Origin: Candidatus Magasanikbacteria bacterium RIFOXYC2_FULL_42_28
GTDB taxonomy: Bacteria > Patescibacteriota > Patescibacteriia > Magasanikbacterales > GWA2-37-8
DNA length: 64,000 bases
Reading direction: 5' to 3'
Assembly: GCA_001784435.1 (NCBI GenBank)
Contig: MFQZ01000001.1
Coordinates: 220,742-284,741 of the forward strand
Shown piece after piece: positions 2,814-31,700 of the stretch; the stretch's first letter is position 1; the number at the start of each line of letters is the position of its first letter. Made by a program: the position numbers and the translations under genes. The notes below the pieces were generated by a model, which worked only from the letters and a program-made list of their open reading frames with translations, ran no database searches and was not told the DNA's origin.

Positions 2814-4613
2814 TTACATCTCCCCAACCACTTCAATCCCCAAAATATCCAAAGATTTTGTCAAAACCGTCCGAACGGCGCCGGACAATTGCACCCGCGC
2901 GGAAATTAATTCTTTGCTTTCGGCTTGTAGGACACTATGTTTATTGTAAAATTCATTATATGCTTGCGCTAAATCAAAAGTGTATTTAATAACGACGGAT
3001 GGATTATAATTATTGTACGCCTTTTGGATTATTTCGCCGTATTGTGATAGCAGTAATAACAATTTTTTTTCTTCGGGCGAAGTGAGTGGGACAGAGATCC
3101 CGATTTTCATCGGGATGACAGTTCGGTGAGAGGATTTTTTGATAATACTGTTGATGCGGGCGACCGTATACAAAACATACGGACCGGTAAAACCGTCAAA
3201 ACTTGCGGCCGTGGCCGGATCAAAAACAATCACTTTTTCCGCTTCGTGTTTTAAAATTTCAAATTTTATGGCCGCTTGAGTAATGGTATGCGCGGTGGTG
3301 GCGATTTTCTTTTTAGACCAATCAGTGTGACGCTTGGCGGTTTCGCTCAATAATTTTTCATAAACTTCATCGCGTAAATCTTCGTACAGTAAAACATTGC
3401 CCAAACGCGAAGACATCTTGCCAGAAGTTGTACTCACGAGCCCATAACCAATATGTTTAGTTTGGTAATTAAATCCGGCTAATTCTAAAATTTTGAATAA
3501 TTGTTTAAAATAAAAATTCTGCTCGATGCCAGTTAGGTGAACGCTTTGAAAAATTTTCGGAAATGTTTTATTGCGCAATTGCGCGAGGCCAAGATCGCTT
3601 GTTAAATACAATCCTAAACCATTGCTTTTACGCAATAATCCAATATCCAAATTATATTTATTTAGATCCACAATAATCGCTCCACCCTCGCCCACTTGTG
3701 CCACGCCTTTTTTCAATAATTCATCCACTAATTTTTGGCCGGCCTCTTTGACCTCATGTTCATACAAAACTGTTTTGTGTCGCACTCCCAATTCTTTAAA
3801 AATTATATTGAAACCGGCGATGCTCCACTGGCGCGTGGTTTTATACAACGGCCAAATGGTTTTATCGTGTTTTTCAATTTTATTTTGTATGATCGCGATT
3901 TCGTCTTTGGCTTCCGGATGTTCCGCTAAATAGATGCTCGCTTCCGTATAAATAGCCCCGAGCCAACGCTGTTTGTTGGCCGGCGGTTTTTCATTTTTAT
4001 GGAATTTTAATAAACCCCACAAACATTTGGCCACATGCGCGCCAAAATCATTAAGGTAGTTGATGGGGATAATATTAAAACCATTGGCCTCAAAAATTTT
4101 AATCAGGGAATTTCCCAAACAGATATTGCGTAAATGACCAACATGAATTTCTTTGTGGGTATTGTTGGCCGGATATTCCACGAGAATTTTTTTGCCTTTG
4201 CCGAAATTGTTTGTGCCATATTTTTTATTCGCAACCGCTGGGATAATTTCTGACGCGAGCGCGCCGGTGTTTAGGAAAAAATTGACATAAGGGCCAAAGG
4301 CGGCGACACGGCCAACAATTCGATTGTCATCCCGAGCGTTTTTTACTGTCATTCCGAGCGAGCCCTTAAGGGGCGACGAGGAATCTCCACCGGACGAATT
4401 GAACGCTGACAGAGATTTCTCACCCTTCGGGTTCGAAATGACAATGGCGAGCTGTTTAGCTATTTCAACCGGATTCATTTTTAATTCTTTGGCCAAATTA
4501 AAACACGCAAACGCCAAATCCCCCATCTCCGGTTTGGGCGGGGTGGTTAAATCAATTTCGCCGGTAACCCCGGCAACGCGTAAAATTTTTATGATTTCGG
4601 ATTTGATGTCCAT
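2814..4613 (-). CDS. argS: Arginyl-tRNA synthetase carrying two in-frame repeat-element insertions.
   Basis: HIGH motif HVGHLRN, an MSSRLG KMSKS-like motif, and class I ArgRS architecture. Insert regions translate to ...GGDSSSPLKGSLGMT... and ...MKIGISVPLTSPEE.... Confidence 0.9.
   Translation of the reverse strand: MDIKSEIIKILRVAGVTGEIDLTTPPKPEMGDLAFACFNLAKELKMNPVEIAKQLAIVISNPKGEKSLSAFNSSGGDSSSPLKGSLGMTVKNARDDNRIVGRVAAFGPYVNFFLNTGALASEIIPAVANKKYGTNNFGKGKKILVEYPANNTHKEIHVGHLRNICLGNSLIKIFEANGFNIIPINYLNDFGAHVAKCLWGLLKFHKNEKPPANKQRWLGAIYTEASIYLAEHPEAKDEIAIIQNKIEKHDKTIWPLYKTTRQWSIAGFNIIFKELGVRHKTVLYEHEVKEAGQKLVDELLKKGVAQVGEGGAIIVDLNKYNLDIGLLRKSNGLGLYLTSDLGLAQLRNKTFPKIFQSVHLTGIEQNFYFKQLFKILELAGFNYQTKHIGYGLVSTTSGKMSSRLGNVLLYEDLRDEVYEKLLSETAKRHTDWSKKKIATTAHTITQAAIKFEILKHEAEKVIVFDPATAASFDGFTGPYVLYTVARINSIIKKSSHRTVIPMKIGISVPLTSPEEKKLLLLLSQYGEIIQKAYNNYNPSVVIKYTFDLAQAYNEFYNKHSVLQAESKELISARVQLSGAVRTVLTKSLDILGIEVVGEM
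3089..3122. repeat. Family A hairpin repeat (GGACAGAGATCCCGATTTTCATCGGGATGACAG) inside the argS coding region.
   Basis: The same roughly 33-bp element recurs at 18541, 25648, 35034 and 45601. Here the argS reading frame stays open through it. Confidence 0.85.
4325..4446. repeat. Family B long palindromic element (TGTCATYCCGAGCG...GGAATCTCC...GAGATTTCTC...CGAAATGACA) inserted in frame in argS.
   Basis: Near-identical copies lie at 44797-44890 (uvrA) and 59562-59660 (queA). Shorter copies lie at 10472, 21188, 38109, 42174, 45084 and 61937. Confidence 0.85.
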
Positions 4614-6383: not shown

Positions 6384-9119
6384 TTACTTCAAATTACTTA
6401 ATTGCTCTTTTAGTTTAGACAATTTTTGCTCGGTCTCGGCCAATTTTTGGGTTTCTTTTTCAACGACGGCCGGTGGGGCGTTATTGACAAATTCGGCGTT
6501 GGCCAATTTATTTTTCATAACTGTCACAAATTTTTCCGCGGCTTCAACTTCTTTGGTCAAACGCGCGGTTTCTTTTTCAATGTCAACAGCGCCGGATAAA
6601 TCTAAATAAATTTCCATATCACCGCACACCAGCGCCACAGCGTTTTCCGGTTTGACGGCCTTGGTCTCAATGGTTAGTTTTTCTAGACGCGCGAGGCCGG
6701 TGATAATAGCGCTATTTTCGGTTAACAATTTTTCTTTAGCGCCGGCACTGATTATCGCGTCAATTTTTTTGTTTGGTTCAATTTTATTGTCGGCGCGAGC
6801 GGAACGGATGGTGGTGATGATAAGTTGTATGGTATTAAAATCGTTAAGGGATTCCTCCACTACGGTCGGAATGACAAGGTGTGGCCACGATTCTACCATT
6901 AACATTCTATCGATGCCGAACATCTCACTCCAAATTTGTTCAGTAACAAACGGCATAAATGGATGCCACAATTTAAGTAATGTTTGCAAAATATACTGTA
7001 AAATCTCTTCTTTGTCACCCTCTATTTTCGCGATTTCTAAATACCAATCAGCCAATTCACTCCAAGTAAAATCGCGCAATTTTTCACCGGCCGCAGAAAA
7101 TTGAAAATTTTCAATATTCTCGCTTACATCTTTAACGGTAGCATCTAAACGCGACAAAATCCATTTGTCAGCTAATGTCAAATTTTGAATTTTTAATTGT
7201 AATTTTGAATTTTGATTTTTAATTTTTGAATTCGCGATAATAAATCGCGCCATATTCCACAATTTATTTGTAAAATTCCGGAAGCCGGCGATTTTTTCTT
7301 CGGATAATCTAGTGTCATTACCGGGGGTATTTCCAAGTAGTAATGATAAACGTGTAGCATCAGCGCCATACTTAGCAATTGAATCCAACGGATCAATTAC
7401 ATTACCAAGCGACTTACTCATTTTGCGCCCTTGCTCATCGCGCACCAGTCCGTGCATATATACTTTTTCAAACGGAATATCACCCAAAGTATAAGTAGTC
7501 ATGAGTACCATGCGCGCCACCCAGAAAAATAAAATATCATAACCGGTTTCCAACACGGAAGTTGGATGAAAAGTTTGTAAATCAACTGTTTTCTCTGGCC
7601 ATCCCAAAGTAGAAAACGTCCACAAACCCGAAGAAAACCAGGTATCCAACGTGTCAGGATCTTGGTGCAAATCGCCACCATCAGTTTGGTTCCCACAATA
7701 CGGACATACCGCTGGCTCGTCAATACTAACGATGGGATTTTCAGAAACTCCCGGCCCAACTTTTTCGGACACCTCTTGACAGGTGCCGTGGTACCACACC
7801 GGAATCTGATGACCATACCAAATCTGGCGCGAAATACACCAATCGCGCAAATTATCTATCCAGCTAAAATACGTTTTATTAAATCTTTCAGGAATAATTT
7901 CTATCTGCCCACTTGCGACCGCTTCAGACATTAACTTCTTTAAAGTCACTTTTTGACCGGCTTTAATATTTTTCAGTTTTGAATTAACAATTGAAAATTC
8001 TTTATTAACATCAATAAACCACTGCTTAGATGGCAACGGCTCAACCGCTGTACCACAACGATAACAGACGGACAAATTATGTATATAATTTTCATCCACT
8101 CTCTCAAGCAATCCCTTATCTGCTAAAATTTTAACGATCTCTTCCCGACTTGCCTGCGCGTTCTTACCGACAAAATCTCCCGCCGCATCCGTAAAATTGC
8201 CGTCTTCATCAATGATTTGAACAACATCTAAATTGTATTTTTTTGCCAATTCATAATCTTCAAAACTATGCGCCGGAGTAATAGTCATCGCACCCGTACC
8301 AAATTTAGGATCAGAGGCCTGGTCGGCGATAACTTTAGCTATAATTTTGCCACCGATCCAATCCATTTCAAATTTTGTGCCTTGCAATTTTTTGTAACGC
8401 TCATCATCTGGGTGGACGACAATAACCTTATCTAAAAATTTCGTTTCCGGACGCGCCGTGCCAATAATTACCGGACCGTATTTAAAATAATAAAATTTTG
8501 TTTTTTGTTCCTTGTATTCCACCTCATCATCCGCCAAAGTGGAGTGGCACCTCGGGCACCAATTTACAATTCTGTATCCACGATAAATCAAACCGTCGTC
8601 ATACATTTTTTTAAAAACCGTGCGCACTGCTAAATTTCGCGGTTCGTCCAAAGTAAACGCCTCACGACTCCAATCTAACGACGAACCCATTTTTTTACAT
8701 TGATTTACAATCGTATCGTGCGACGCCTGCGCAAATTTATTAACTTCGTCTAAAAATTTTTCACGCCCTAATTCTTTTTTTGGATCCTTAATTCCTTTTT
8801 CAATCAATAATTTTTCTACTTTTGTTTGAGTCGCGATTGCCGCGTGATCCGTCCCAGGCAACCACAAAGTTTTATCACCTTTCATGCGATGATATCGAAT
8901 CATCAAATCCTCTATTGCAAGCATCATGGCATGACCAATGTGAAGTGTGCCAGTTACATTTGGCGGGGGTAAAACTATTGTAAACGGTTTGGCATTTGCA
9001 TCTGTTCCACCTTTCTCAACACATACATCCGGATTAAAAAATCCGCTCTCTTCCCAGCGTTTATAAATCGCATCCTCGTAATTTTGGGGCTCGTAGGCCT
9101 TGGGTAGTTCTTTATTCAT
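6384..9119 (-). CDS. valS: Valyl-tRNA synthetase.
   Basis: PPPNVTGTLHIGHA, KMSKSLGN, and a long C-terminal coiled coil, in 911 aa. It contains an in-frame AT-rich repeat insertion at about 7178-7232. Confidence 0.92.
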   Translation of the reverse strand: MNKELPKAYEPQNYEDAIYKRWEESGFFNPDVCVEKGGTDANAKPFTIVLPPPNVTGTLHIGHAMMLAIEDLMIRYHRMKGDKTLWLPGTDHAAIATQTKVEKLLIEKGIKDPKKELGREKFLDEVNKFAQASHDTIVNQCKKMGSSLDWSREAFTLDEPRNLAVRTVFKKMYDDGLIYRGYRIVNWCPRCHSTLADDEVEYKEQKTKFYYFKYGPVIIGTARPETKFLDKVIVVHPDDERYKKLQGTKFEMDWIGGKIIAKVIADQASDPKFGTGAMTITPAHSFEDYELAKKYNLDVVQIIDEDGNFTDAAGDFVGKNAQASREEIVKILADKGLLERVDENYIHNLSVCYRCGTAVEPLPSKQWFIDVNKEFSIVNSKLKNIKAGQKVTLKKLMSEAVASGQIEIIPERFNKTYFSWIDNLRDWCISRQIWYGHQIPVWYHGTCQEVSEKVGPGVSENPIVSIDEPAVCPYCGNQTDGGDLHQDPDTLDTWFSSGLWTFSTLGWPEKTVDLQTFHPTSVLETGYDILFFWVARMVLMTTYTLGDIPFEKVYMHGLVRDEQGRKMSKSLGNVIDPLDSIAKYGADATRLSLLLGNTPGNDTRLSEEKIAGFRNFTNKLWNMARFIIANSKIKNQNSKLQLKIQNLTLADKWILSRLDATVKDVSENIENFQFSAAGEKLRDFTWSELADWYLEIAKIEGDKEEILQYILQTLLKLWHPFMPFVTEQIWSEMFGIDRMLMVESWPHLVIPTVVEESLNDFNTIQLIITTIRSARADNKIEPNKKIDAIISAGAKEKLLTENSAIITGLARLEKLTIETKAVKPENAVALVCGDMEIYLDLSGAVDIEKETARLTKEVEAAEKFVTVMKNKLANAEFVNNAPPAVVEKETQKLAETEQKLSKLKEQLSNLK
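7178..7232. repeat. AT-rich AATTTTGAATTTT-type repeat inserted in frame in valS.
   Basis: CAAATTTTGAATTTTTAATTGTAATTTTGAATTTTGATTTTTAATTTTTGAATT translates to KIKNQNSKLQLKIQNL. The same motif family occurs in intergenic repeats at 13741, 36590, 55325 and 58478. Confidence 0.6.
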
Positions 9120-9309: not shown

Positions 9310-10452
9310 ATGGCTTTGACCGAAATTGAACAATTTAAACAGCTCGTTAGCGACAGCAAACATATTTTAATTGCCCTGCCGGCGCAAGCGGAAACGGACG
9401 CAACTGCGAGTGCTTTGGCTCTGCAATTATTTTTGACCGCTTCCCACAAGCAAGTTGACATTGTGTCGGCTGATTTTGTCATGCCAAAAAATTTAAAATT
9501 TTTAACCGGCGTGGAAAAAATTAAACCGGAATTGGAACATTTACAAAAATTTATTATTAAAGTGGATGTGTCCAAAGCAAAGATTGACTCCATCAGTTAT
9601 GATATCAAAGATAGTTGGCTTTCCATTTATTTAACCCCTCGCTCCGGCACCGTGGGCGCCTCGGATTTACGCACGGCTCAAACTACTTACCGCTATGATT
9701 TTGTAATTACTCTGGGCGCGCCCGACTTAGCGAGTTTGGGCGAGGTGTTTGCCAACAACACCGATTTATTTTATCGTTTGCCGATTATTAACATCGACAC
9801 GAACGCGGGTAACGAACGATTTGGAAAAATCAACTTCGTGGATTTGAGCGCCGCCGGCGTGGCCGAAATGCTTTTTAAATTATTACAACAAATTAATGAA
9901 CCGCAAATCACGGCCGAAATCGCGACCGCGCTTTTAACCGGCATTACCGCCGCGACGCACAGTTTTAAATCACCACATGTTTCGCCGTTGTCTTTAAAAC
10001 ACGCGAGCACGCTCGTGTCTATGGGCGCGGATCGGGAAAAAATTATCACTCATTTATACCGCACCAAAACTTTATCCGCGCTGAAAATGTGGGGGCAGGC
10101 CTTGGCGCATTTGAAATTTAATCCCGAATTAAAATTGGCCTCGGTGGTAATTACCCGCGATGATTTCACCCGTGCCGGCGCGCGCGCTGAAGAGTTGGCT
10201 GGTCTCGCTGAAGAATTAATTGGCAGTGCTCCCGAAGCGGAATTGACATTGTTAATGTATGAAGATCCGACTGATGGGGTAGTCAACGGCTTGCTTCACG
10301 CTAATTCTAAATATGATGCCAAACAATTGACCGCGGCCTTTGGAAGTGAAGGCAATAAAAAGCAGGCGCGGTTTATTTTGACCGGGGTGGATTTGGTGGG
10401 GGCGGAGGAGAAAGTGGTTGAGCAGCTGAAAAATTTAAATTCTAAATCTTAA
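9310..10452 (+). CDS. DHH/DHHA1-family (NrnA-like) phosphoesterase homolog with degenerate catalytic motifs.
   Basis: The overall layout resembles NrnA, but the DHH motif reads IDTNAGNERFG and motif I reads AETDATAS rather than PDGDALGS. The listed ORF starts at 9100 and overlaps valS. MALTEIEQFK at 9310 is the more plausible start. Confidence 0.5.
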   Translation: MALTEIEQFKQLVSDSKHILIALPAQAETDATASALALQLFLTASHKQVDIVSADFVMPKNLKFLTGVEKIKPELEHLQKFIIKVDVSKAKIDSISYDIKDSWLSIYLTPRSGTVGASDLRTAQTTYRYDFVITLGAPDLASLGEVFANNTDLFYRLPIINIDTNAGNERFGKINFVDLSAAGVAEMLFKLLQQINEPQITAEIATALLTGITAATHSFKSPHVSPLSLKHASTLVSMGADREKIITHLYRTKTLSALKMWGQALAHLKFNPELKLASVVITRDDFTRAGARAEELAGLAEELIGSAPEAELTLLMYEDPTDGVVNGLLHANSKYDAKQLTAAFGSEGNKKQARFILTGVDLVGAEEKVVEQLKNLNSKS

Positions 10453-10471
10453 GCAAATTAAAAAACTAACT

Positions 10472-10506
10472 TGTCATTCCGACGACGAAGGAGGAATCTC
10501 TGTCCA
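10472..10506. repeat. Short intergenic copy of the family B element (TGTCATTCCGACGACGAAGGAGGAATCTCTGTCC).
   Basis: Sequence identity to the intragenic copies. Confidence 0.8.
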
Positions 10507-10527
10507 TTAGTAATCCGAAAAATTAAT

Positions 10528-10566
10528 AATCCACCCCGACGTTACATCGGGGTGGATTTTTTGTGT
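10528..10566 (+). terminator. Rho-independent terminator after the DHH-family gene.
   Basis: ATCCACCCCGA-CGTTACA-TCGGGGTGGAT followed by TTTTTT. Confidence 0.8.
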
Positions 10567-10580
10567 TCCAATACATAGCC

Positions 10581-10609
10581 TTGACATTCATATATATATG
10601 TTAATAATA
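10581..10609 (+). promoter_or_regulatory. Sigma70-like promoter upstream of the GC-rich ORF.
   Basis: TTGACA (10581-10586), a 17-bp spacer, then ATAATA. Confidence 0.5.
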
Positions 10610-10616
10610 AGTGGTT

Positions 10617-10635
10617 GAGTCGGACAGTCTGACTC
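10617..10635. promoter_or_regulatory. 19-bp imperfect palindrome (GAGTCGGACAGTCTGACTC) between the promoter and the RBS, an operator-like site.
   Basis: Dyad symmetry GAGTC...GACTC around a central A. It lies just downstream of the -10 element. Confidence 0.35.
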
Positions 10636-10663
10636 GCAAAACAACCTACACGAGGAGGCAGTC

Positions 10664-10981
10664 GTGAAAATGACCCTTGGTCAAATCGCCACGGACAGAA
10701 AAAAGACAGTCGTCGTCGTTCCGATCGGAGATGGCAAAAACCTGTCTCTCGAAGACGAGGAGTGGCTGACACTGGGAGCATTCCCCGACGTCATCATCGA
10801 GATCGACTCAGAGCGGGCCTTGCCGCTCGAGGCCTATCTGGTCAACGCCGACCAGCGACACCTGCTCATCTGCCCGAAGCACGGCCACACCATCAAGACG
10901 GCTGACGGTAAGCCCTGCGAATACGAGAATGGCCAGCGCAAGCTGTCCATTCAACCTACCAACCTGTACGCGGACAGCTGA
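10664..10981 (+). CDS. Hypothetical 105-aa protein with compositionally foreign coding (GC3-rich).
   Basis: A GAGGAGG RBS at 10652-10658 precedes the GTG/ATG start. Codon usage is dominated by G/C-ending codons (CTG, GGC, GAC, ATC), unlike the neighbouring genes. No recognisable family. Confidence 0.55.
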   Translation: MKMTLGQIATDRKKTVVVVPIGDGKNLSLEDEEWLTLGAFPDVIIEIDSERALPLEAYLVNADQRHLLICPKHGHTIKTADGKPCEYENGQRKLSIQPTNLYADS

Positions 10982-11110
10982 ACTACACGCGACTCCTGCC
11001 AGAACCCCCAGGGCCTGCACATCGTTCTTTCCCACCTTCACATCCCAGGCCCGCCCATTCTTTACAATAAAAATTGCAAAGAGTGATAATCCTGGAATGT
11101 GAATAAGTTT

Positions 11111-11146
11111 AAAAAAACGCTGTCAATTTTGACGGCGTTTTTTTGG
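11111..11146 (+). terminator. Rho-independent terminator downstream of the GC-rich ORF.
   Basis: AAAAAAACGCTGTCAA-TT-TTGACGGCGTTTTTTT. The stem has one G-U pair. It is flanked by A and T runs. Confidence 0.7.
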
Positions 11147-11218
11147 GGGAAATTTTGAAATTTTAAATTTGTTTAGAATCAGGAACAATCAGTTATCCAC
11201 AGCTTAATTGATTAAACA

Positions 11219-11247
11219 TTGACAAAATGCACTTTTTTAGGTATAAT
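11219..11247 (+). promoter_or_regulatory. Near-consensus sigma70 promoter.
   Basis: TTGACA (11219-11224), a 17-bp spacer, then TATAAT (11242-11247). Confidence 0.65.
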
Positions 11248-11253
11248 ACATGT

Positions 11254-11322
11254 GTAAGTTGGAAACAGCTTACAAACAAATCGTTGGCTTGAGGGTCCCC
11301 AAAGGATCCTTTTGGCTTTTTA
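11254..11322 (+). ncRNA. Candidate small RNA of about 65-70 nt, bracketed by a consensus promoter and a terminator hairpin.
   Basis: The TSS is predicted about 7 nt after the -10. The hairpin CCCCAAAGGATCCTTTTGG at 11297-11315 is followed by CTTTTT. The only plus-strand ORF here (68 aa) overlaps the convergent NYN gene and looks spurious. Confidence 0.4.
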
Positions 11323-11353
11323 TAATAGCAACTAACCTAATTTTCGGGCATCC

Positions 11354-12121
11354 TTATAATAATTTATTCTTAAAATCGGCCGTAATTTCAGAAGATAATT
11401 CTTTAGAACGACAAATAAACTCTTTAATTTTCCGAATATCAAAAATACCCGCTTGACTTTGACCAAGCTCAACTGACACTCTCCTTGCGACCGCAAAAAT
11501 CATCACCTTCTTATTGTCATCTACCAACTGTTGGATTGGATCGGCAAAATCGCTATCCCCACTCCACAATATAAAATTATCAATATCGCCTTGGCTGTAA
11601 TCCAAAAGCATATCACGACCAATCTCAACGTCAAAATTACACTTCAACACTTTAAGTGCTTTGACACCACCGCGATTCATTTCCAGCAATTTAGAATTTA
11701 AAAATTCAATTGTCTCAACATCTAATTTATACAGAAACGGTTTAGCAATAAAATTGGCAATTACCGTCGGCGACCCAGGATCAATACCGGATACATCAAT
11801 TGACCAATTCATTACTTTAACCGGCTTCGTCTTTACTTCATAGCCGCAATCCGTGGCTGTTTTTGTATATACATTTTCTAACGGATCATTTTCCAACGTA
11901 CCATAATAAAATTTTACAATTTTTACCATCTCAAAAGAATCAAGTAGTTGCTTTAATCTTTTTAAATCAATGTGCCACCCTAACTTTTTTTGCCAATGTT
12001 TAACGTTAGCAAAATCAATATAAACATTAGTGGGCTTATCAAAAATCGCATCTAACTGTCTAATAATATCCGAAAATTTTTTAGCCAATTCAGCCACACG
12101 CGGCGTTTTTGGTTTGAACAT
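11354..12121 (-). CDS. NYN-domain protein carrying an N-terminal extension domain.
   Basis: VYIDFANV...FILWSGDSDFADPIQQLV are NYN/LabA-like motifs. Confidence 0.6.
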   Translation of the reverse strand: MFKPKTPRVAELAKKFSDIIRQLDAIFDKPTNVYIDFANVKHWQKKLGWHIDLKRLKQLLDSFEMVKIVKFYYGTLENDPLENVYTKTATDCGYEVKTKPVKVMNWSIDVSGIDPGSPTVIANFIAKPFLYKLDVETIEFLNSKLLEMNRGGVKALKVLKCNFDVEIGRDMLLDYSQGDIDNFILWSGDSDFADPIQQLVDDNKKVMIFAVARRVSVELGQSQAGIFDIRKIKEFICRSKELSSEITADFKNKLL

Positions 12122-12138
12122 AAAAAAATGACAGAATT

Positions 12139-13731
12139 TTATATCAACGGCACACCGGTCATTTCAGACGGCTTCTCCACTTCCATCAATTTCAAAACTG
12201 TCGGCGCGATATCAGCCAACACCCCGACCGGATGCATTAAGGACAAATCCCCTTCGGGCGGATCACCGGCCGGGCCGGCTTGGCCTTGAAAATCTTTGCC
12301 GATTATTAAAAGTGGCACCGGATTAGTGGTGTGCTCTTTATCAATTTCGCCGGTTTGTAAATTGATGGTTTCTTCGGCATTGCCATGATCGGCGGTCATA
12401 AGCATTACTCCGCCGGCGGCCAAAGTGTGTTCCACAATTTCACCCAACGCCTTGTCGGCGGCTTCACACCCCTTGATGGTCGCGTTCACGTCGCCGGTGT
12501 GCCCGACCATATCGGGGTTGGCCAAATTAACAATTACCAAATCATATTTTCCGCTATCAATCGCTTTGGACGCTTCTTTGGCCACGCCCGCGGCTGACAT
12601 CTGGGGCTCTTCGTTATAACTGGACACTTGCGGAGAAGGGATAAGCGAACGCTCTTCGCCCGGAAACGGATCTTCCACCGCGCCATTTAAAAAGTAAGTA
12701 ACATGCGCGTATTTTTCCGTTTCGGCCACATGAAATTGGGTCTTGCTTGCCTTACTAACTGTTTCAGCTAAACTGTTAATCACCACGACCGGTGGAAACG
12801 CTACACCAGACACAGGTAAATCTTTTTCATATTCAGTCATGGATACAAACCGCAAATCCCGCAAATATGGCCGATCAAATTTATCAAAACCGGGCAGGAC
12901 AAACGCCTTGGTTAATTGCCGACCGCGGTCAGGCCGAAAATTAAAAAATATCGCGCTATCCCCTTCTTTAAAAATTCCAATCGGTTCGCCTTTTTTGGTG
13001 ATGACTGTAGGAATGAATTCCTCATCATAAACTTTTTTCGCGTAAGAATCAGTAACGGCTTTAAGCGCGTCTTCGGCCGTTTGTTTGCTTTCGCCCAACG
13101 CCATCGCGCGATAGGCCTTTTCCACTCTGTCCCAACGGTTATCGCGGTCCATCGCATAATACCGGCCACAGACAGACGCGATTTTCCCAACTTTTAAACT
13201 ATTCATTTTATCTTGTAACCGACGCACAAAATCCGCGCCGGAATTATAAGGCGCATCGCGGCCGTCTAAAATTACGTGAATAAAAACATGATTTTTTAAA
13301 GTGGTGGAAATTTTTTGCTGACGGCATAAATCCAACAGCGCGTAGAGGTGGCTTTCGGCCGCGTGAATATTGCCGGCGGACAGTAATCCAATTAAATGCA
13401 AATCAGATTTTTTTTCTTTAACTTGATTTAAGGCGCGCGTAAAAGCGGTGTTGGTAAAAAAAGTGCCATCGGCAATGGTTTGGTTAATGCGCGGACAGGA
13501 TTGATAATACACTCGGCCAGCACCGATATTTAAATGCCCTACTTCGGAATTGCCCATTTCGCCAAACATAAGACCAACCTCATTGCCAGACGCAAACAAA
13601 GTCATCGCCGGATATTCTTTAATATACTTATTAAAGTTTTTCATCTGGGCGCGCGTAACCGCGTTGCCTTCTCCAGGTGGAGCAACGCCGAGGCCGTCGA
13701 AAATTGTGAGGACTACGGGTTTATAGGACAT
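12139..13731 (-). CDS. gpmI: 2,3-bisphosphoglycerate-independent phosphoglycerate mutase.
   Basis: VLTIFDGLGV...GNSEVGHLNIGAGRV (catalytic Ser region), in 530 aa. Confidence 0.9.
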   Translation of the reverse strand: MSYKPVVLTIFDGLGVAPPGEGNAVTRAQMKNFNKYIKEYPAMTLFASGNEVGLMFGEMGNSEVGHLNIGAGRVYYQSCPRINQTIADGTFFTNTAFTRALNQVKEKKSDLHLIGLLSAGNIHAAESHLYALLDLCRQQKISTTLKNHVFIHVILDGRDAPYNSGADFVRRLQDKMNSLKVGKIASVCGRYYAMDRDNRWDRVEKAYRAMALGESKQTAEDALKAVTDSYAKKVYDEEFIPTVITKKGEPIGIFKEGDSAIFFNFRPDRGRQLTKAFVLPGFDKFDRPYLRDLRFVSMTEYEKDLPVSGVAFPPVVVINSLAETVSKASKTQFHVAETEKYAHVTYFLNGAVEDPFPGEERSLIPSPQVSSYNEEPQMSAAGVAKEASKAIDSGKYDLVIVNLANPDMVGHTGDVNATIKGCEAADKALGEIVEHTLAAGGVMLMTADHGNAEETINLQTGEIDKEHTTNPVPLLIIGKDFQGQAGPAGDPPEGDLSLMHPVGVLADIAPTVLKLMEVEKPSEMTGVPLI

Positions 13732-13740
13732 AGTGTTATC

Positions 13741-13860
13741 AAATTCTAAACTCTAAATACTAAATTCTAAACAATTTCAAAATTCAAAATTCAAAAAGCT
13801 TAAAATTTAAATTTGGAACATTAGGGTTTATTTAGAATTTAGGGTTTAGTATTTAGAGCT
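13741..13860. repeat. AT-rich palindromic intergenic repeat (TCTAAACTCTAAATACTAAA ... TTTAGGGTTTAGTATTTAGAGC).
   Basis: A long inverted repeat sits between the two iPGM genes. The same motif family is at 36590-36717 and 58478-58527. Confidence 0.75.
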
Positions 13861-15428
13861 TAATACAATGGTCTTCCCGTCATCTCCTTCGCTTTCGCAA
13901 TATTCATCATTTTTAAAAGTGTCGGTGCCACATCAGCCAAAATGCCGTTTCTTAGGCGCTTCGCTTTTCCACCAATTAAAATACATGGCACCGGACTAAA
14001 AGTATGTTCATTCATTTTTTCTTTGGTTTTGTGATTGATCATTACTTCGGCATTGCCATGATCGGCGACGATTAACGCCTGGCCGTGAATTTCCTTCAAA
14101 GTATTAATAATTTTTTTAACGGCCACGTCCATAGTCGCAATCCCTTTTTTGGCCGCGGCTAAATTGCCAGTGTGGCCCAACATGTCGGCGTTGGGGAAAT
14201 TTACGCAGATAAAATTATATTTCCCGGTTTTAAAATAATGGGAAATTTTTTGCGCCAATTGGGGCGCGTGCATTTGGGGTTTTTGCGCGTAAGAATGAAT
14301 TTTGTCCGAATGAATTAATTCGCGCTGTTCACCATTTAAGGCGTCAGGGTACCCGCCGTTGATAAAGTAAGTAACATGCGCGTATTTTTCCGTTTCCGAA
14401 ATATATAATTGTTTATAATGACCATCGATTACCGCCGGCAAACAATTTTTAATGTCTTCGGAGGGGAACGCTGTCAAAACATTGGGCAAGTCCGGTCCAA
14501 AATCCGTCATGGCCACAAAGCGAATATCTTTCGGAACATGGCAACGCGTGAATGACCCGGGATTTTTTTTATTAAAATCGGGCTGGACAAAGGATTTGGT
14601 AATTTGACGAGCGCGATCACTCCGAGCGTTGAAAAAGAAAATCACGTCATTGTCTTGGACTTTTGTCACTGGATGACCATGTTCGGTAATTACCGTCGGG
14701 GTAATATATTCATCGGTTTCGCCCCGGTTATACGCCTGAGCTATTGCGTCTTCGGCCGACACGGCTGTGTTGCCAACACAACCCACCAGCGCGTCGTGCG
14801 CTAATTTTATCCGTTCCCAAATTTTATTCCGATCCATGGCATAAAATCGCCCCATCACCGTGGCAATTTTTTCTGCGCCTTGCATTTTAGCGCGCAATGC
14901 AACTAAATATTTAGCGGCGGCATGCGGAGGAGAATCGCGGCCATCGGTAAATAAATGTAAATAAACTTTTTTCTGTTCTTCTCGGCGGAATAATTCCAAT
15001 AAAGCGTAAAGGTGTTCAGGATACGAATGCGCGCTCGCCCCGTCGGTCAACATCCCCATCACATGCACGGCGCTGTTATATTTTTTAGCGTGATACAACG
15101 CCTGTTTAAAAGCGGTATTTTTAAAGAATGTTCCATCGTGAATGGCTTCAGAAATTATTACTAAATCCTGTTTGACAATCCGACCGGCGCCGATGTTTAA
15201 ATGCCCGGCTTCGGAATTTCCTACTTGCTTCGGAAATAAACCGGCATATTGGCCGTAAGTTTTTAAAGTGGAATGAGGATATTTTTTAAAATATGAAAAG
15301 AGATTGGGCGCAGTCGCGGATGTAATCGCGTTGCCCGGATCGTCTTTTTTTCCAAACCCAAAACCATCCAAGATTATGAGGGCGGTTGATGGACGGATTA
15401 TTTTAGATTTAGAGTTAATTTTAATCAT
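13860..15428 (-). CDS. Second iPGM-family paralog (cofactor-independent phosphoglycerate mutase or a related phosphomutase).
   Basis: ALIILDGFGFG...GNSEAGHLNIGAGRIV. The listed ORF extends to 15494 by translating the upstream repeat. MIKINSKS at 15428 is the more likely start. Confidence 0.8.
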   Translation of the reverse strand: MIKINSKSKIIRPSTALIILDGFGFGKKDDPGNAITSATAPNLFSYFKKYPHSTLKTYGQYAGLFPKQVGNSEAGHLNIGAGRIVKQDLVIISEAIHDGTFFKNTAFKQALYHAKKYNSAVHVMGMLTDGASAHSYPEHLYALLELFRREEQKKVYLHLFTDGRDSPPHAAAKYLVALRAKMQGAEKIATVMGRFYAMDRNKIWERIKLAHDALVGCVGNTAVSAEDAIAQAYNRGETDEYITPTVITEHGHPVTKVQDNDVIFFFNARSDRARQITKSFVQPDFNKKNPGSFTRCHVPKDIRFVAMTDFGPDLPNVLTAFPSEDIKNCLPAVIDGHYKQLYISETEKYAHVTYFINGGYPDALNGEQRELIHSDKIHSYAQKPQMHAPQLAQKISHYFKTGKYNFICVNFPNADMLGHTGNLAAAKKGIATMDVAVKKIINTLKEIHGQALIVADHGNAEVMINHKTKEKMNEHTFSPVPCILIGGKAKRLRNGILADVAPTLLKMMNIAKAKEMTGRPLY

Positions 15429-15429
15429 A

Positions 15430-15470
15430 CTATTTGACATTGGAAATTGGAAATTTGACATTTCGCACAC
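15430..15470. repeat. Family E repeat (TTTGACATTGGAAATTGGAAATTTGACATTTCGC).
   Basis: Copies at 18850-18900, 45133-45180, 53080-53140 and 61081-61200, all at gene 5' ends or inside uvrA. Confidence 0.8.
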
Positions 15471-15471
15471 C

Positions 15472-16716
15472 TTATCTTCCCAACTCCAATTCAATTTCCA
15501 TCAACCGATTATACTTTTCCGTGCGCTCGGAACGCGAAATTGATGTTTTAATAAATTCAGCGTTGACGGCTACTGCTAAATCAGCAATAAAAGTATCGGA
15601 CGTCTCGCCACCGCGATGCGAAATAGTAACCTGATAGCCACTGTTTTTAACCAGCTGAATTGCCACCATAGTTTCGGTTACCGTGCCGATTTGATTCGGT
15701 TTGATAAGTACCGCGTTGGCAATTTTTTCTTTAACACCACGCGTGATCCGCTCGACATTAGTCACAAACAAATCATCGCCAATAAGTGAAACTTTACCAC
15801 CCAATTCTTTAGTTAAAATTTTCCAATTTTCCCAATCATCTTCGGCCAAACCGTCTTCAATGGAAAATAAGGGATATTTTTTCACCCATTGCTTAAAGGT
15901 CTCAATCATTTTCGCCGCGCGCCACGGTTGTTTTTTACTGATGAAATAATAATTGCCCTTGCTATACAATTCCGAAGCGGCCACATCTACCCCCAAAAAA
16001 ACCTGCTTACCCGGTTCCCAACCGGCGGATTTAATCGCTTCAATCATAATTTGCAAAGCGCGTTCGTTGCTGGACAATTCAGCCGCATAGCCACCCTCAT
16101 CACCCACGGAAGTATGATAACCCTTGCGCGCGAGCAAAGTGCCAAGAGCATGAAAAATTTGCGAGCCCATGCGCACGCGTTCACTGAAAATTTTATTGCG
16201 GGGAATAATTAAAAATTCCTGAATTGTCAACCCGCTGTCCGCGTGCCGGCCACCTTCAATTACCATCATCATGGGTACGGGCAAACGATATTCTTTTTCT
16301 TTTATGCCATAAACTTTGCGCAAATAGATATAAAGCGGCAAACGAGCGGCAGACGCACCCGCGCGCGCGAGCGCGAGTGAAACCGCCAAAGTAGCGTTGG
16401 CCCCTAGATTGGATTTATTTTTAGTGCCATCAAGTGTAATTAACATTTGGTCCAAAGCCGGCAAATCTTCCACTTCAAAACCGACTAATTTTTTAGCAAT
16501 TATGGTATTAACATTTTTCACCGCGCGCAATACTCCTTGCCCGCCATAGCGCTTGCCCCCATCGCGCAATTCCCGCGCTTCATGAACACCGGTCGAAACG
16601 CCGGATGGAACTTTGGCCACGGCCATAAGCCCATTTTCCAAAATAACTTTCGCCTCCACGGTCGGATTACCGCGTGAGTCCAAAATTTCGCGAGCGGTGA
16701 TTTGTTTGATTTTCAT
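15472..16716 (-). CDS. eno: Enolase.
   Basis: MKIKQITAREILDSRGNPTVEAKV N-terminus and full enolase architecture. Confidence 0.95.
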   Translation of the reverse strand: MKIKQITAREILDSRGNPTVEAKVILENGLMAVAKVPSGVSTGVHEARELRDGGKRYGGQGVLRAVKNVNTIIAKKLVGFEVEDLPALDQMLITLDGTKNKSNLGANATLAVSLALARAGASAARLPLYIYLRKVYGIKEKEYRLPVPMMMVIEGGRHADSGLTIQEFLIIPRNKIFSERVRMGSQIFHALGTLLARKGYHTSVGDEGGYAAELSSNERALQIMIEAIKSAGWEPGKQVFLGVDVAASELYSKGNYYFISKKQPWRAAKMIETFKQWVKKYPLFSIEDGLAEDDWENWKILTKELGGKVSLIGDDLFVTNVERITRGVKEKIANAVLIKPNQIGTVTETMVAIQLVKNSGYQVTISHRGGETSDTFIADLAVAVNAEFIKTSISRSERTEKYNRLMEIELELGR

Positions 16717-25749: not shown

Positions 25750-28700
25750 CTACCTTGCGTTCAACGCCGCTCGCGTGGCCGGACCCAAATGGCCAGGATA
25801 TGGCTTCAAATCCTTAGCTTTTTGGAATTTAACCACCGCCGCTTTGGTAACCGCGCCATAGTAACCGGTGATGGTTGGGTAAGTGAAATAACCTAAATCT
25901 TTCAACACTTGCTGTAATTGTTTCACTTCTTCACCAGTCGCGCCCATTCCCAAATACTTGGTAAATTTGTAGCCCGAGGACACAACTGGTGCTGGTGTTG
26001 TGACAATCGGCGCCGATCCATTTAATTTTTCACAAGTGGCCGTATTCAACTTACCATTTATCGGCAAGCCCTTGGCCTTTTGATAAGCGCTTACCGCTTT
26101 TGCTGTCACCGCACCGTAATAACCGGTGTTAGAAGGGTAAGTAAAATATCCTAATTCTTTCAAATGCGCCTGTAAATCTTTGACCGCGTTACCTCGCGCG
26201 CCCGGATTTAGATTGCCTTTACACCTGATGATGGTAACTGCTGGTGTTACTACGACGGCGACCGGTTGAGTTGTGGTCGACACAACTACTGGTGGTGGCG
26301 TCGTAGTTACCGGGGAAATCAAAGTGATCGTATCTGACACGGCATTGGAGACATTTCCAGAATCGTCGCGGAATTTAGCGTATACGGTCTTGACACCGTC
26401 GCCCACAGCCAATACCCACGCTTTCGTCGTAGAATATGTCGTCCAGACGCCACCAGCAAATGCGCTATCATTAGCAACCATCATATGCGATGCGCCAGTC
26501 GCGGCTAAAGCCAGATTAACGCTTGTAGTCGCGATAGAAGTCGCGCCGTCCGCTATTACAACTGAAGTGTTGGTCGGTGGAGTGGTGTCAGATGAACCGC
26601 CGCCACCGCCACTCGATGCTGAATCATTATCAGTGATAGCAACGGTAATATCGTTAATTACTAAACCATTATAATCTGAATCATCACTTGTTACCGCGTG
26701 AGTAATGGTGGTGCTATGTGACCCCTCAACCGTGCTATCATCGGTAGCGGTAACGATTATTGATTGAGGTGTGGCATAATTGCCCGAAGTAAATGTCAAA
26801 CTGGACGGCGACCGAGTGGCCTGACTGGCGATTGATGGGGTAATTACCACATTGGCTGTGGGCTCGCTAGTCAAAACATAACTTACCGTGTCGGTGGTTC
26901 CACCTTCGGTAACTGCGGTCACCTCATCTGATTGAGTAACAGTAATACCGGCACTACCTTGTGTATAAGTAATCACGAAATCCGTAAAGTGGCTGGTCAA
27001 ACCGGTGATAGTATTATTAGCCGTATCAATGGTAAACCCGCCCTCTACCGGCACATAATCGCCTTTTTCTGGAGAGTAATAAGCTAATTTCAAATCTGAT
27101 TCCGAAACCCCTTCCGGCAAATCAGCCAATAAACTGGCGTAATCGATTTGAATTTCCGCGTTGCCGGATAAAGTTTTAATACTGGAATCTCCGGTAGCGT
27201 TGATACTGAAGTTGGCGTTACCCAACGCTTGATAGTTAGCGGTATCAGGAGCGTTATAACTCTTTTCAAAATTTAAGGTAACATCGCCCGAACCGGTTTC
27301 CAACACGCCCGCGCCGGCTGTTAATTTAAGCCCGGTGCCGGAACTATCATTCACCGAACCACCGGCCGAAGCGGTCAAAATCCCCGAGGTAGAAGTAGCA
27401 ACATTACTAGCATCGGCAGTCAAAACGAAACTGGCAATTTCATCACCGCCACTTACGATAACCGCGCCACCACTATTAGTAGTTTCAGTATGACTCTCAC
27501 CCACACCTTTAAGGGTCCAAGTACCGGTGGCAACAGCCAAAGAATACGAACCATCAGCATTAACCGGAGCCGTAACTACGGTACCGGAAGCATTGGTCGC
27601 CCAGACATAACCCTCATCCATAGCCACGCCGGCTGAACTGCTCACCGTGCCGGAAATAGTGTAAGGCGCGCTTGTAAGGGCGGCTTGGCCATCGTTGTCC
27701 GTGCCACCTTCACTCGTGCCAAAATCATACCCAGCAGTACTAGTGGCGAACTCTACACTGGTATCTTTAGTAGGCAAATATCCGGCCAAAGAATCACTCA
27801 CGCTGTAATCACCGGCTTTTAATTGCGCGCTATATTGTCCGTTGGAATCAGTCGTTGCCGTAATCGTGCTACTGGCATTGGTAAAGGTGATAAGAGCGCC
27901 GGATTTGGCGTTACCACTGTCATCATAAACCGTACCGGTAACAGTAAGCAGAGTGGCACCACTTAAATTAATGGCAACTTCCGCTTCACCCTCTAAGAAA
28001 TTTAAAATCGTACCGGTAAACTTACCAATACCAAAAACATCGGCAAAATAAGTGTAGGTCGCACTATCATTTGGAACTGATATGGTGGTGGCGGAATCCA
28101 AACCGTTAATTTGTTTGGCGATTTTTTTATTTTTATCAGCGTTATTTTTTAATTCAATAAACGCGTCCATATCAGCGGCACCACCCGTAAAGGTGAAAAT
28201 AACAGAGCCATTGCTAACTGTTAAATTTTTAGTAGTATTAGCGGCAACTGTTACTGTGTCGCTTAACTCTCCATAAGTGGAACTCCAAGAACCAACCCGA
28301 TAGGTCCCGGCACCGACTTTGACTGAATAATCACCGGCACTATCAGTAGAGCCACCGACTCGGATACCGGCCGGAGCTGGACGATTGTTATCCGCGTCCC
28401 ACTCTTCAATAAATATCGGGGCATTGGCAATATCAGCAACATTACCACTTAAAGTATAACAAGTTGAAACCGACGGAGTAATATTTTGGCTGGATTGATT
28501 GGCGCCACTAACCGTAACGGATTTGGAGAAAGAGCCACAGGTGTCTGATTTACTCGGCGGTAATTGCGCCCGCACGGTCCAAGTGCCATTATCAACAAAC
28601 AAAGTATAACTACCGTCCGAAGAGGTCATACCAAAGACACTGGTACCACTCGCGCTCACTGCTGAAATGGGGGCGTAGCCAATAGCGCTATTGTTGCCGT

Positions 28701-31700
28701 CTAAAACCTTACCGGAAATAGTGTAATCGGCTTTTTTCATTGTCAAAACAAAATTGCTGGTTTTATCCTGACCGTCAACATAAATTTTATTCAATTCTCC
28801 CACCGCTCGTAATTCTATATTTTTCATAACTTCCGGCATACCATCTTTATGCGCCCCAATTTCATAACTGCCATAATCAGTAACATTCAAACTAAATGTA
28901 CCAGAAGCGTTGGTTTGAGTAAATACCGGCTGGCTAAAACCTTGGCGATGTAAAAACACTTCCACATTCGCCAAACCATTACCGGCGACATCTTTTACCG
29001 TGCCGGATATGGTTTTGTTAGCCGCAGCAAAAGTAAATGTTACCGTGCCATTGGAATAAGATACTCCGGGTGGCGCGAATTGATTGCCCAGTGCTATTAC
29101 CGGCGTAGTCGCAATATTACTGACACTCAAATTAACCGATGGTGGTGGCATTACTCCCAAACTGGCCGGCTTACCGCCGGACGCGCTTTTAGACATCCCC
29201 GGACCCATCCCAACAAACCAGTATCCATCAGAATTTAATTTTACTTGATAACCGGCCGACAGCGAAGTAGTAACATTGGTTAAATTTTTCACCACAAATT
29301 TACCAGGGCCACCGGCAAAAATATCAATATCCTTGCCACCAAAATTATATGGGTCGCCGCTACTGTTTACAAATTTAACAGTCAAAGTGGCGGTAGAACC
29401 ACCGCTGGCCGAAGTTAAATTGATTGTTTTGCTACTTGATTGGCCACCGCTTAAACAAGCCGGCTCGGGCGACATTTGGCCATAATAATCAGTGCTACCC
29501 AAAGTAACATACGGATCAGTGCCTAAGAAATAACAACCATCCGGCAAGCTGGCATAAATAACCGAAGTCGCGCTGGTGCCATCAACTTTGTCAATAATAC
29601 CATCAGCCAAAGTAAGCAATTTATCCATCGGCCCACCCGGACCACCGCCGTGTAAATACACGGTGCCATTGGCGCCGGCCGCTCCACCACCGGCAGTAAC
29701 ATTAACCGTCAAAGTATTGCTACCACCGGCCATAATAAAGTACGGCATTGATGTTTTGGTGGTAACCGCGGCGCCACCGCGCAACACTTTAATACCAACC
29801 GTATAACCACCGGAGGATGGATCTTTTGGAATAGACGGGTTGAGAATTTTTTTCAAATCAACGGAAATCGGATCAGAAGCATTAGGCGAACCGGAAACAG
29901 CCAAAGTGATAGTAACTTTGTTATTAGCGCTATCCACCGCCACACCGGAACCGGTAATTGTGCCGGCCATAAACTGATTAAAATCAGTATAAAATGGCGA
30001 CTGTGTATCTAAGGTCGCATTGGTAATCGTCGTGCCATTGGGGAATGTTAAAACCACCTGATCACCCTCTATCAAAACAACATTTGGCACAAATTTAATT
30101 TGAAACACATTGGAATCGGCGCTGGCTGTCGGATTAAACGGAAACGCCATATCGGCCTGCCCAAACGAAAATTGATCAGCCGTGAAACTACCAAAACCCA
30201 TTGGTTTAAATTCACCACTGCCAATATTACCCTCACCCATAAAACTTTCCGTTGGTGGCCCAAACATCCCCATATCGCCAAATGAGCCAAAAGTGATTTT
30301 ACTGTCTTCTACTTTACCAACAACTGTACGGACGGTCGTAGAAACCGCGTTATCTGATAAATCAGTGGTGGAAGTGGCAATGGTAGTGGTAACGGTTACG
30401 CCCACCGTTAACCCCAAACCGGTAATACTCACCGCATGGCGCATTGGATCATAACTTAACGGCTTATCGGACAAACTAACCGTACTGCCACCGCTCGTAA
30501 TTGTAAAATTATCAGAGTTTAAAACACTGGCCAACCAACGACTATCGGATTGCGAATCCGCCACCATCGGCTCGTTAAACACCAATTCGCAACGGTAATC
30601 ATCACAACGCGCTTCGCGCAATTGCGGAGCGGTGGAATCAGTGCCGCCGGTAGTATATGCATAGGTGGTGGTGGCGAGAGTGTTTCCGGCCAAGTCAGTT
30701 ACACTGGGGCTAAAAGTAATCGTGTAAGCGGTATTAGGCGCCAAGACATTGCTCGGAACCACAGAAATACTATTTTTACCTGGGTCATAAGCAATGCTAA
30801 CACTTACAGCCGTAGAACCGCGCGTCATAGTAACGTTGGAATTGCTCACAGTGCTAAACGCCAACTGTTCGTTAAAACCAAATTCAAAAATTTTATTAGT
30901 CGGCACACCGGTAGAATTATTAGTAAGAGCGGGGTAAATTGTCGGAGCGGTGGAATCGTTGGAACCGGAAACAGTAAATCTGGAACTAAACGCTGTTTGC
31001 GCCGCCTGTTCCCCGGTGCGCATCGGCACATTACTAATGTTGCTAGCCGCGCCTAAAACACGCACTTCATATTCACCGGCTGATAAAGCGCTATGACTCA
31101 CAGTAACAAAACGTTTTTCGTTGGAATCCAGTGACGCGGTCGTGCCGGCCACAAGCGAACCGCCGACCGTATATAATTTTACCGAACTGGTTACGCTCGC
31201 ACTCATCGCGTCGTTAAACTCCACTAAAACCGGAATATTGGGAGCGGCAGTTATCCCGGGAGACGGAGCAACCGAACGAACATACGGAGGCATATATTGG
31301 CCACCGGTGCCGAACTGTCCGGATATTTGGCTAAAATCAACAAACTGGTCGCCAATAGTGGTAAAAGTTATTTTGTGCCCGCCACCGGAACGATTACCTT
31401 CTACCGCTTGTCCGCCTTGGCTTTTTACTTTTTCGGTAATTACGAGAGTATATTGAGTGCTGGTTGATAAATCAGCGGTTGGGTTAAACAGAATCACGTT
31501 GGTGTCCATACTAAACAACAGCTCACACCCCGCGGCCTGATTATTAGAACAATAAGTTACCGAACCGGCCACATTTTCACCGGTGGCGGTTTTTACTAAA
31601 TAAACATTACTGCTGGTAGCCGAGCTTACTGTTGTAATTGAAGTGGCATCCATTGGCTGATTAAAACCGGCCCGCAACGATTCGGAAATATTAAATCCTT

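Follow-up and report, generated by a model that had tools for sequence, protein, structure and literature searches.

We consider a short GC-rich transcription unit with a single open reading frame (ORF) in the metagenome-assembled groundwater genome of Candidatus Magasanikbacteria bacterium RIFOXYC2_FULL_42_28 (contig MFQZ01000001.1, positions 220,742 to 284,741). This whole stretch of 64,000 nucleotides is called the window below, and all coordinates are counted from its first letter. The gene order around the unit is ValRS on the minus strand, a gene for a DHH-family phosphoesterase on the plus strand that ends at 10452, the GC-rich unit itself, a gene with an NYN domain on the minus strand and two iPGM genes, also on the minus strand. 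The DHH and iPGM genes, both core genes, stand tail to tail and are separated by a gap of 1686 bp (10453 to 12138); in comparison with related genomes, all of this gap is an insertion of accessory DNA. The ORF of the unit, at 10664 to 10981 on the plus strand, begins with GTG and encodes 105 amino acids; its product is a member of a rare, uncharacterised family of proteins of about 100 amino acids.

The window has a GC content of 42.6% over its 64 kb. A two-change-point maximum-likelihood segmentation separates from it a compositionally foreign block of 446 bp at 10611 to 11056 (log-likelihood ratio 25.5), which takes in the 5' untranslated region (UTR), the coding sequence and a 3' tail of the unit. 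The GC content of the block is 0.581, against 0.383 in the local surroundings; its right edge is tight (11052 to 11065) and its left edge looser (10606 to 10658). An earlier reading of this DNA, which used the sequence only, had described a segment markedly richer in GC than its neighbourhood, and the block is indeed the GC maximum of the window: it is the top 440-bp GC window of the whole 64 kb, 3.5 standard deviations above the mean. At the three codon positions the ORF has GC contents of 0.60, 0.37 and 0.745. The value at the third position (GC3) lies outside the range of all other ORFs of at least 150 amino acids in the window (0.21 to 0.52) and is 4.8 standard deviations above 1386 in-frame chunks of 318 nt taken from other ORFs, the maximum of which is 0.604. 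The synonymous-codon log-odds is -0.31 for the ORF and -0.05 for the worst other ORF. A uniform GC3, which the sequence-only reading had named as evidence to the contrary, is therefore not what the window contains. Its statement that the codons end almost exclusively in G or C correctly identified the outlier and overstated the share, which is 74.5%; the neighbours that it called strongly AT-rich at third positions do have a lower GC3 than the ORF but are only moderately so, at 0.32 to 0.49 (DHH 0.47, NYN 0.32, iPGM 0.49, ValRS 0.385).

When the unit is broken down by part, the GC content is 0.55 in the 5'UTR, 0.57 in the coding sequence and 0.64 in the non-coding 3' tail (10982 to 11056, plus strand), with flanks of 0.26 in the promoter stretch and 0.32 in the terminator stretch. 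The tail is C-rich and G-poor: of the 77 nt from 10982 to 11058, 36 are C and 12 are G. The non-coding 5'UTR and 3' tail share the GC shift, and there codon selection cannot be its cause.

The unit carries its own putative expression signals, all on the plus strand. A sigma-70-type promoter-like site, TTGACA-16-AATAAT, matches 11 of the 12 consensus positions at 10581 to 10608 in a stretch of 26% GC, and is one of only 7 sites in the window that score at least 11/12; the TTGACA-17-ATAATA of the sequence-only reading is the same site read one base over. The 19-nt dyad, GAGGAGG ribosome-binding site and terminator of that reading are likewise all present. The dyad, GAGTCGGACAGTCTGACTC, is imperfect and lies at 10617 to 10635. 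It occurs only once in the window, with 0.02 chance matches expected, and folds as a hairpin of 8 bp with a 3-nt loop where the mRNA is predicted to begin. The Shine-Dalgarno sequence GAGGAGG occupies 10652 to 10658, 5 nt before the GTG, and reads TAGGAGG in a strain variant, L003. Downstream of the ORF, a long imperfect hairpin of 67 nt in the 3'UTR (11037 to 11103), found as an inverted repeat, straddles the right composition boundary, and a hairpin scan finds an intrinsic terminator at 11111 to 11144 with 16-nt arms; its stem stands between an A-run upstream and a T-run downstream, an arrangement that could work both ways. Compared with shuffled sequence, the 3'UTR folds with a z-score of -5.5 and the full transcript with a z-score of -5.2, while the coding sequence alone is not unusual (z-score -1.8).

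What might the dyad do? The sequence-only reading took it to be operator-like, which finds no support. If transcription starts about 7 nt past the -10 element, which ends at 10608, the start would fall at about 10615 to 10618, and the dyad would be the first 19 nt of the mRNA, forming a 5'-terminal stem-loop. Stem-loops of this kind shield bacterial mRNAs from decay that depends on the 5' end. Given this predicted position and the protection that such stem-loops afford, and because there is no regulator gene near the unit and no predicted DNA-binding motif in the protein, we prefer to read the dyad as a putative 5' stem-loop stabiliser rather than as an operator. Together, the 5' stem-loop, the structured 3'UTR and the terminator would protect both ends of the mRNA and give stable expression. 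As a side observation, two homologue loci, L008 (about 3345 to 3365) and L068 (about 845 to 865), have a common 5'UTR hairpin, AAAAAACCC(A)TCGGACAAATCGTCC, just before the Shine-Dalgarno sequence, and the window dyad also has TCGGACA in a hairpin at a comparable place; the shared hairpin could be a conserved leader element, or it could be chance.

Is the ORF a gene at all? Its product is identical to GenBank OGH88778.1 (hypothetical protein, A3J93_01660), for which the annotated start is the ATG at 10670, giving 103 amino acids. The annotation probably misses the first two codons. The GTG at 10664 is favoured because it stands 5 nt after GAGGAGG, because it brings the N-terminus (MxxT...) into register with the homologues, and because the family gene at locus L067 shows GAGGAGG followed by GTG as well; there, a GTG that follows GAGGAGG and lies 7 codons before the called ATG is probably the true start. 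A word-indexed protein search gives no match beyond the protein itself. An exhaustive phmmer search of 1.84 billion representatives yields 9 full-length relatives of 93 to 105 amino acids at 30 to 44% identity (two longer hits, P0002 and P0005, were set aside as spurious, being repeat proteins in which short motifs are hit over and over), and profile searches add 5 further members. The family amounts to about 17 sequence clusters among 5.8 billion. Its alignment is collinear from the first residue to the last, with F38, P52, L53 and P69 invariant, and the close pair P0012/P0013 has a nonsynonymous rate (dN) of 0.17 and a synonymous rate (dS) of 0.85, a dN/dS of about 0.2. With the 15-sequence family alignment, AlphaFold2 predicts a compact alpha/beta domain with a predicted local distance difference test (pLDDT) of 90.6 and a predicted template-modelling score of 0.80; with the single sequence the pLDDT is 35.6. 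Since the homologues are full-length, dN/dS is about 0.2, the GC periodicity is of the coding type and the predicted fold is confident, ORF 10664-10981 is a genuine protein-coding gene, with homologues under purifying selection.

The statement that this protein has no recognisable family holds for the curated libraries, and an uncharacterised rare family of relatives does exist. None of its 15 members has a match in Pfam, NCBIfam, PHROGs or PADLOC. A sequence profile search of the PDB finds nothing below an E-value of 0.67, and a comparison of the predicted fold with solved structures (PDB) and viral structures (BFVD) gives no match. An Rfam search over 9500 to 12500, with E-values up to 1, gives no match.

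Both junctions of the GC-rich block are present in three other assemblies, at 100%, 100% and 99.8% identity. These are the Logan assembly of SRR2090171, the MEGAHIT assembly ERZ27254750, and the scaffold ERZ28563708 (L003), which is listed under a different sample accession. L003 spans 10349 to 11415 and shows two single-nucleotide polymorphisms (SNPs), one within the Shine-Dalgarno sequence (10652) and one within the 3'UTR (11034). Neither lies in the coding sequence, and L003 is therefore a natural variant with the same unit. The Logan and MEGAHIT contigs (L001 and L002) both begin at 10472, where a copy of a 28-nt repeat begins. The chimerism that the sequence-only reading had thought worth excluding is thus not borne out, and from the agreement of the assemblies the block appears to be no assembly artefact.

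We turn to the insertion site. A set of 48 related loci was drawn from GTDB species representatives, anchored on the DHH protein, and 31 of these loci hold both flanking genes. The DHH/iPGM gap measures -188 to 138 bp in 26 of the 31, against 1686 bp in the window, and the stop codons of the two genes often overlap by 4 nt. At none of the 48 related loci does the DHH/iPGM junction contain a homologue of the ORF or an NYN gene, and none has DNA similarity to the gap of the window; presence or absence in related genomes, a point that the sequence-only reading had also raised, thus comes out as absence of the gene from the orthologous site in 48 of 48. Four other genomes have an occupied gap with cargo that differs from that of the window. 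In L015, which with 75% DHH identity is the closest relative, the gap has a cytidine-deaminase-like gene; L016, a Magasanikbacteria genome of 48.8% GC, has two ORFs with GC3 of 0.73 to 0.77 at 7387 to 8375, one of them with a Fis-type HTH_8; L038 has an ORF of 717 amino acids; and L047 has a gap of 569 bp with no convincing gene. Because the gaps of these genomes hold different cargo, the DHH/iPGM junction is a recurrent landing site for accessory DNA, and with L016 this hot spot is seen to hold GC-rich foreign cargo for a second time.

About 10 independent loci of the family were recovered elsewhere. Their neighbours vary: FtsK together with ParE/HicB modules in L004 and L011, ComEC and NDK in L008, ComEC in L065, a P-type ATPase in L013, a ribonucleotide reductase in L064, and ruvC with a yebC-like gene in L067; L063 is a TARA marine contig. 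The ComEC genes that adjoin the family gene in L008 and L065 belong to one subclade and are not counted as independent evidence. An all-against-all comparison of every ORF in the family loci finds no conserved partner gene, no other family locus has an NYN neighbour, and the small ORFs upstream of the gene at other family loci are unrelated to one another. Nearly all copies have a strong Shine-Dalgarno sequence and a terminator of their own. The GC3 of the family ranges from 0.35 to 0.745. The GC content of the gene matches that of its locus in L004, L008 and L013, and lies about 8 to 13 points above it in L064, L065 and L067; in L067 the gene (3035 to 3337) has a GC of 0.585 and a GC3 of 0.71 in a locus of 45.5% GC, and is placed in opposite orientation between ruvC and the yebC-like gene. 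Because GC3 spans 0.35 to 0.745 and matches the locus in L004, L008 and L013, high GC is no inherent property of the family. The family looks horizontally mobile, and the pattern of its sequences fits repeated horizontal transfer with later amelioration.

Some further observations concern these loci. In L011 there is a tRNA-like Rfam match at 491 to 595 (39.9 bits, 105 nt), just downstream of the family gene. In L004 (about 2930 to 3130) and in L011 a long conserved hairpin follows the family gene, and the ParE/HicB modules come after it. A transfer-messenger RNA beside the L004 homologue was entertained and dropped: neither ARAGORN, which makes no call there, nor Rfam supports it, the tRNA-like match in L011 being all that was found. 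The contig-name prefix ANAN16-1 is common to L067 and to the strain variant L003.

Taken together, the extreme composition, the absence from the orthologous site, the patchy family and the reproducible junctions support horizontal acquisition, as the sequence-only reading had proposed. We consider it probable that the unit is a horizontally acquired, self-contained single-gene transcription unit, a case of ordinary horizontal gene transfer. Several points weigh against this reading. All collections searched lack a donor or any relative above 44% identity, the best relative being at 39 to 44% depending on the tool, and because no donor or close relative was found, the direction and recency of the transfer rest on composition. 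The nearest related genome is only 75% identical in DHH, which limits both the dating and the exact bounding of the insertion. The unit was found to have neither a mobility gene nor an attachment site, and no target duplication around it is convincing; the direct repeats around it are a 7-nt AATAAGT at chance level (bracketing 10613 to 11101) and an 11-nt repeat, and the window contains no tRNA. The promoter, the transcription start and the terminator are consensus predictions. Finally, the window protein is without some residues that are near-invariant in the family, and because the GS and RDP motifs are missing it may be functionally divergent from its relatives.

Other explanations have to be weighed against horizontal acquisition. 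The GC-rich block could be a fragment of a higher-GC organism from the same sample, joined by assembly into the Magasanikbacteria contig: the composition step is abrupt on both sides, and a dispersed repeat at which short-read contigs break lies 110 bp upstream. Yet both junctions lie in unique sequence and recur in three assemblies from different pipelines, one of which, L003, carries its 2 SNPs, and the block is neatly framed by promoter, Shine-Dalgarno sequence and terminator; we regard a chimera as very improbable. Even less credible, to the point that we would nearly dismiss it, is that the block is a structured non-coding RNA or element in which the ORF is fortuitous. In genomes richer in AT, a GC-rich island is often an RNA gene, and the strong promoter, the terminator and the significantly structured 3' part would suit one, but Rfam gives no match even at E-values up to 1, and the coding-type GC periodicity, the full-length homologues, the dN/dS of about 0.2 and the confident AlphaFold2 fold all speak for a protein. 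There is a slim chance that the gene is old and native, that its GC richness comes from selection on mRNA structure or stability, codon usage or amino acids, and that the relatives have lost it. Several family members are richer in GC than their neighbours, and the full transcript is strongly folded (z-score -5.2). The coding sequence alone, however, is not unusually structured (z-score -1.8), the non-coding tail is even richer in GC than the coding sequence, the GC3 of the family spans 0.35 to 0.745 and tracks the genome in L004, L008 and L013, and this explanation needs at least 26 independent losses or a clean clade-wide absence.

The remaining alternatives accept a foreign origin and differ in the source. 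The unit could be the remnant of a phage, plasmid or other mobile element of the candidate phyla radiation (CPR), a moron whose carrier has decayed or been excised. The architecture of a moron is there (own promoter and terminator, deviant GC, a position between genes that abut in relatives; PMC3594210), and the gap also holds a second foreign-looking gene and a unit that resembles a small RNA. Against this stand the lack of any phage or plasmid gene in the gap and its flanks, the housekeeping neighbours at the family loci with readable context, and the searches of mobile elements: tblastn and blastn against 50,697 phage and 72,556 plasmid records, scans of IMG/VR, and PHROGs all return no match. 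We therefore hold a decayed carrier to be improbable. The donor might instead be the cellular host of the episymbiont, a high-GC bacterium, as the sequence-only reading suggested. The 57% GC of the gene would suit many groundwater Actinobacteria or Proteobacteria, and a distant member, L013, sits in a locus of 56.8% GC whose neighbours (FecR, an RND membrane-fusion protein, a P-type ATPase) do not look to us like those of a CPR genome. But the relatives with readable context are mostly in Patescibacteria-type neighbourhoods, one of them named Patescibacteria by NCBI, no host-like homologue was found among 15 billion proteins, and published transfers in Patescibacteria are mostly within the phylum (PMC12455944); a host donor seems to us quite unlikely. 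The closest relatives, P0003, P0004 and P0007, are on short contigs without taxon assignment. Two scans of Joint Genome Institute (JGI) metagenomes, of which the first used an exact 40-mer from the 3' end of DHH and sought empty-site strains, gave no match.

How, then, would a single gene of this kind travel? According to the explanation that we favour, horizontal acquisition of a self-contained unit, the family would pass from genome to genome as a single gene. Most likely, these bacteria, which are naturally competent, would take up the DNA, and illegitimate recombination would then place it in neutral intergenic sites between genes that stand tail to tail. The copy in the window would be a recent arrival from an unsampled donor of roughly 55 to 60% GC, more probably another groundwater Patescibacterium than the cellular host. 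Patescibacteria of aquifers are reported to have hundreds of individually transferred genes, acquired mostly by exchange within the phylum, and to owe their competence to ComEC (PMC12455944).

It is useful to set the unit beside systems that are already described. A moron is an independent transcription unit added to a phage genome (Cumby et al. 2012, PMC3594210). The window unit resembles one in having its own promoter-like site and terminator, in its deviant composition (GC 0.58 against 0.38 in the surroundings, GC3 z-score 4.8) and in being inserted between genes that are adjacent in relatives, with members that spread horizontally. It differs in lying outside any phage or prophage, flanked by ValRS, DHH and iPGM, and in having neither phage homologues nor a known link to lysogeny. 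It thus shows three of the four defining features of a moron and lacks the fourth, residence in a phage. Closer are the transferred genes and islets of Patescibacteria (PMC12455944), with which it shares the deviant accessory gene in an aquifer CPR genome, the lack of attached mobility genes, and the likely uptake by competence and exchange within the phylum; it is unlike them in that its cargo is an unannotated, ORFan-like family and that donor and recipient are not paired. Of the usual marks of an islet, the atypical composition, the absence from the orthologous site and the patchy family are found; a donor lineage or near-identical copy and the signatures of mobility (integrase, tRNA target, flanking repeats) are not. 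The most fitting label for the unit is that of an accessory gene transferred on its own, or genomic islet, whose product belongs to a small-protein family that has not been described.

Like an integron cassette, the unit is short, has a single ORF and ends in an imperfect inverted repeat of about 67 nt, and the cargo of cassettes is typically ORFan. Unlike a cassette, it has a promoter-like site of its own. The hairpin contains no RYYYAAC/GTTRRRY cores of an attC site, there is no GTTRRRY site and no pair of cores in 10900 to 11250, and the flanking genes examined include no integrase or cassette array. A type II toxin-antitoxin pair was also considered and is ruled out, the gene being solo, with no Pfam or PADLOC match and no kept partner.

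A functional analogy from general knowledge is with orphan immunity or antitoxin-like small proteins. The family resembles these in being soluble, about 100 amino acids long and mildly acidic, with a conserved hydrophobic core and without a catalytic signature, and in its stand-alone horizontal spread, with the L004 and L011 copies near ParE/HicB modules. The likeness ends at the cognate toxin, the sequence or fold match and the conserved partner gene, none of which was found. No catalytic-type residues are conserved in the family (F, P, L and P are what is invariant), the protein has neither a signal peptide nor a partner gene, and most members have a mildly acidic isoelectric point. The lack of catalytic-type residues, the acidic isoelectric points, the solo horizontal spread and the toxin-antitoxin modules near two loci lead us to a guess, held with low confidence, that the protein is cytoplasmic and non-enzymatic and binds another macromolecule, for example as a protein of the orphan-immunity or anti-toxin type in inter-microbial conflict.

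The rest of the DHH/iPGM gap deserves a description of its own. A bidirectional terminator-like hairpin, found in the inverted-repeat and signal scan, closes the upstream DHH gene at 10528 to 10558. Before it, at 10473 to 10500 on the plus strand, lies a copy of a 28-nt repeat, GTCATTCCGACGACGAAGGAGGAATCTC, that is dispersed in the genome; we give it as context, and short-read contigs break at it. Further copies in the window are at 38111 to 38138, 44860 to 44887 (minus strand) and 59630 to 59657 (minus strand), making 4 against 0 expected, and three of the four are within long ORFs. The NYN-domain gene (11354 to 12121, minus strand) is the second occupant of the gap and has no link to the ORF. 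It is unusually AT-rich (GC 0.348, GC3 0.32), and 17 nt separate it from iPGM, which precedes it on the same strand. Because its composition is opposite to that of the GC-rich unit, the gap is a composite rather than a single island. A toxin-inhibitor pair made of the NYN RNase gene and the ORF was rejected in view of this opposite composition and the absence of NYN from every other family locus.

Between the two genes, at 11219 to 11320 on the plus strand, the inserted gap contains a candidate small RNA: a perfect TTGACA-17-TATAAT promoter is followed by a predicted transcript of about 65 nt with two hairpins and, at its end, a terminator (11291 to 11315). It has no Rfam match, and its antisense pairing with the mRNA of the ORF, tried as a possible connection, is no better than that of shuffled sequence. 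Beyond the gap, the iPGM genes at 12139 to 13731 and 13860 to 15494 (minus strand) are tandem paralogues of the cofactor-independent type, both with iPGM_N and Metalloenzyme domains. Among the GC peaks of the window, those that rank second and fourth fall within a very long ORF of 2732 amino acids at 25750 to 33948 (minus strand).

What the unit means can be stated at several levels. For the genome, it is a clean, well-bounded single-gene horizontal acquisition in a CPR bacterium, with an insertion site defined against 31 related genomes, and the compositional flag that was raised from the letters alone marks a real feature and no assembly artefact. Foreign ORFans in genomic islets are already well known, and the finding opens no major question by itself. 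A bolder idea, which we rate as unlikely, is that the family of about 100 amino acids is an unrecognised, autonomously spreading single-gene cassette of ultra-small CPR bacteria that lands repeatedly with the GC content of its donor. The landing sites in that case are intergenic or within operons (DHH/iPGM in the window, ruvC/yebC in L067), and the cassette itself carries no mobility gene. If the idea were true, the cassette would persist through a portable benefit, such as immunity to an aquifer toxin or defence system, or through selfishness. What the analysis does expose is a very rare small-protein family with a confident predicted fold and signs of repeated transfer, a candidate for structural and functional work on the accessory genes of episymbionts.

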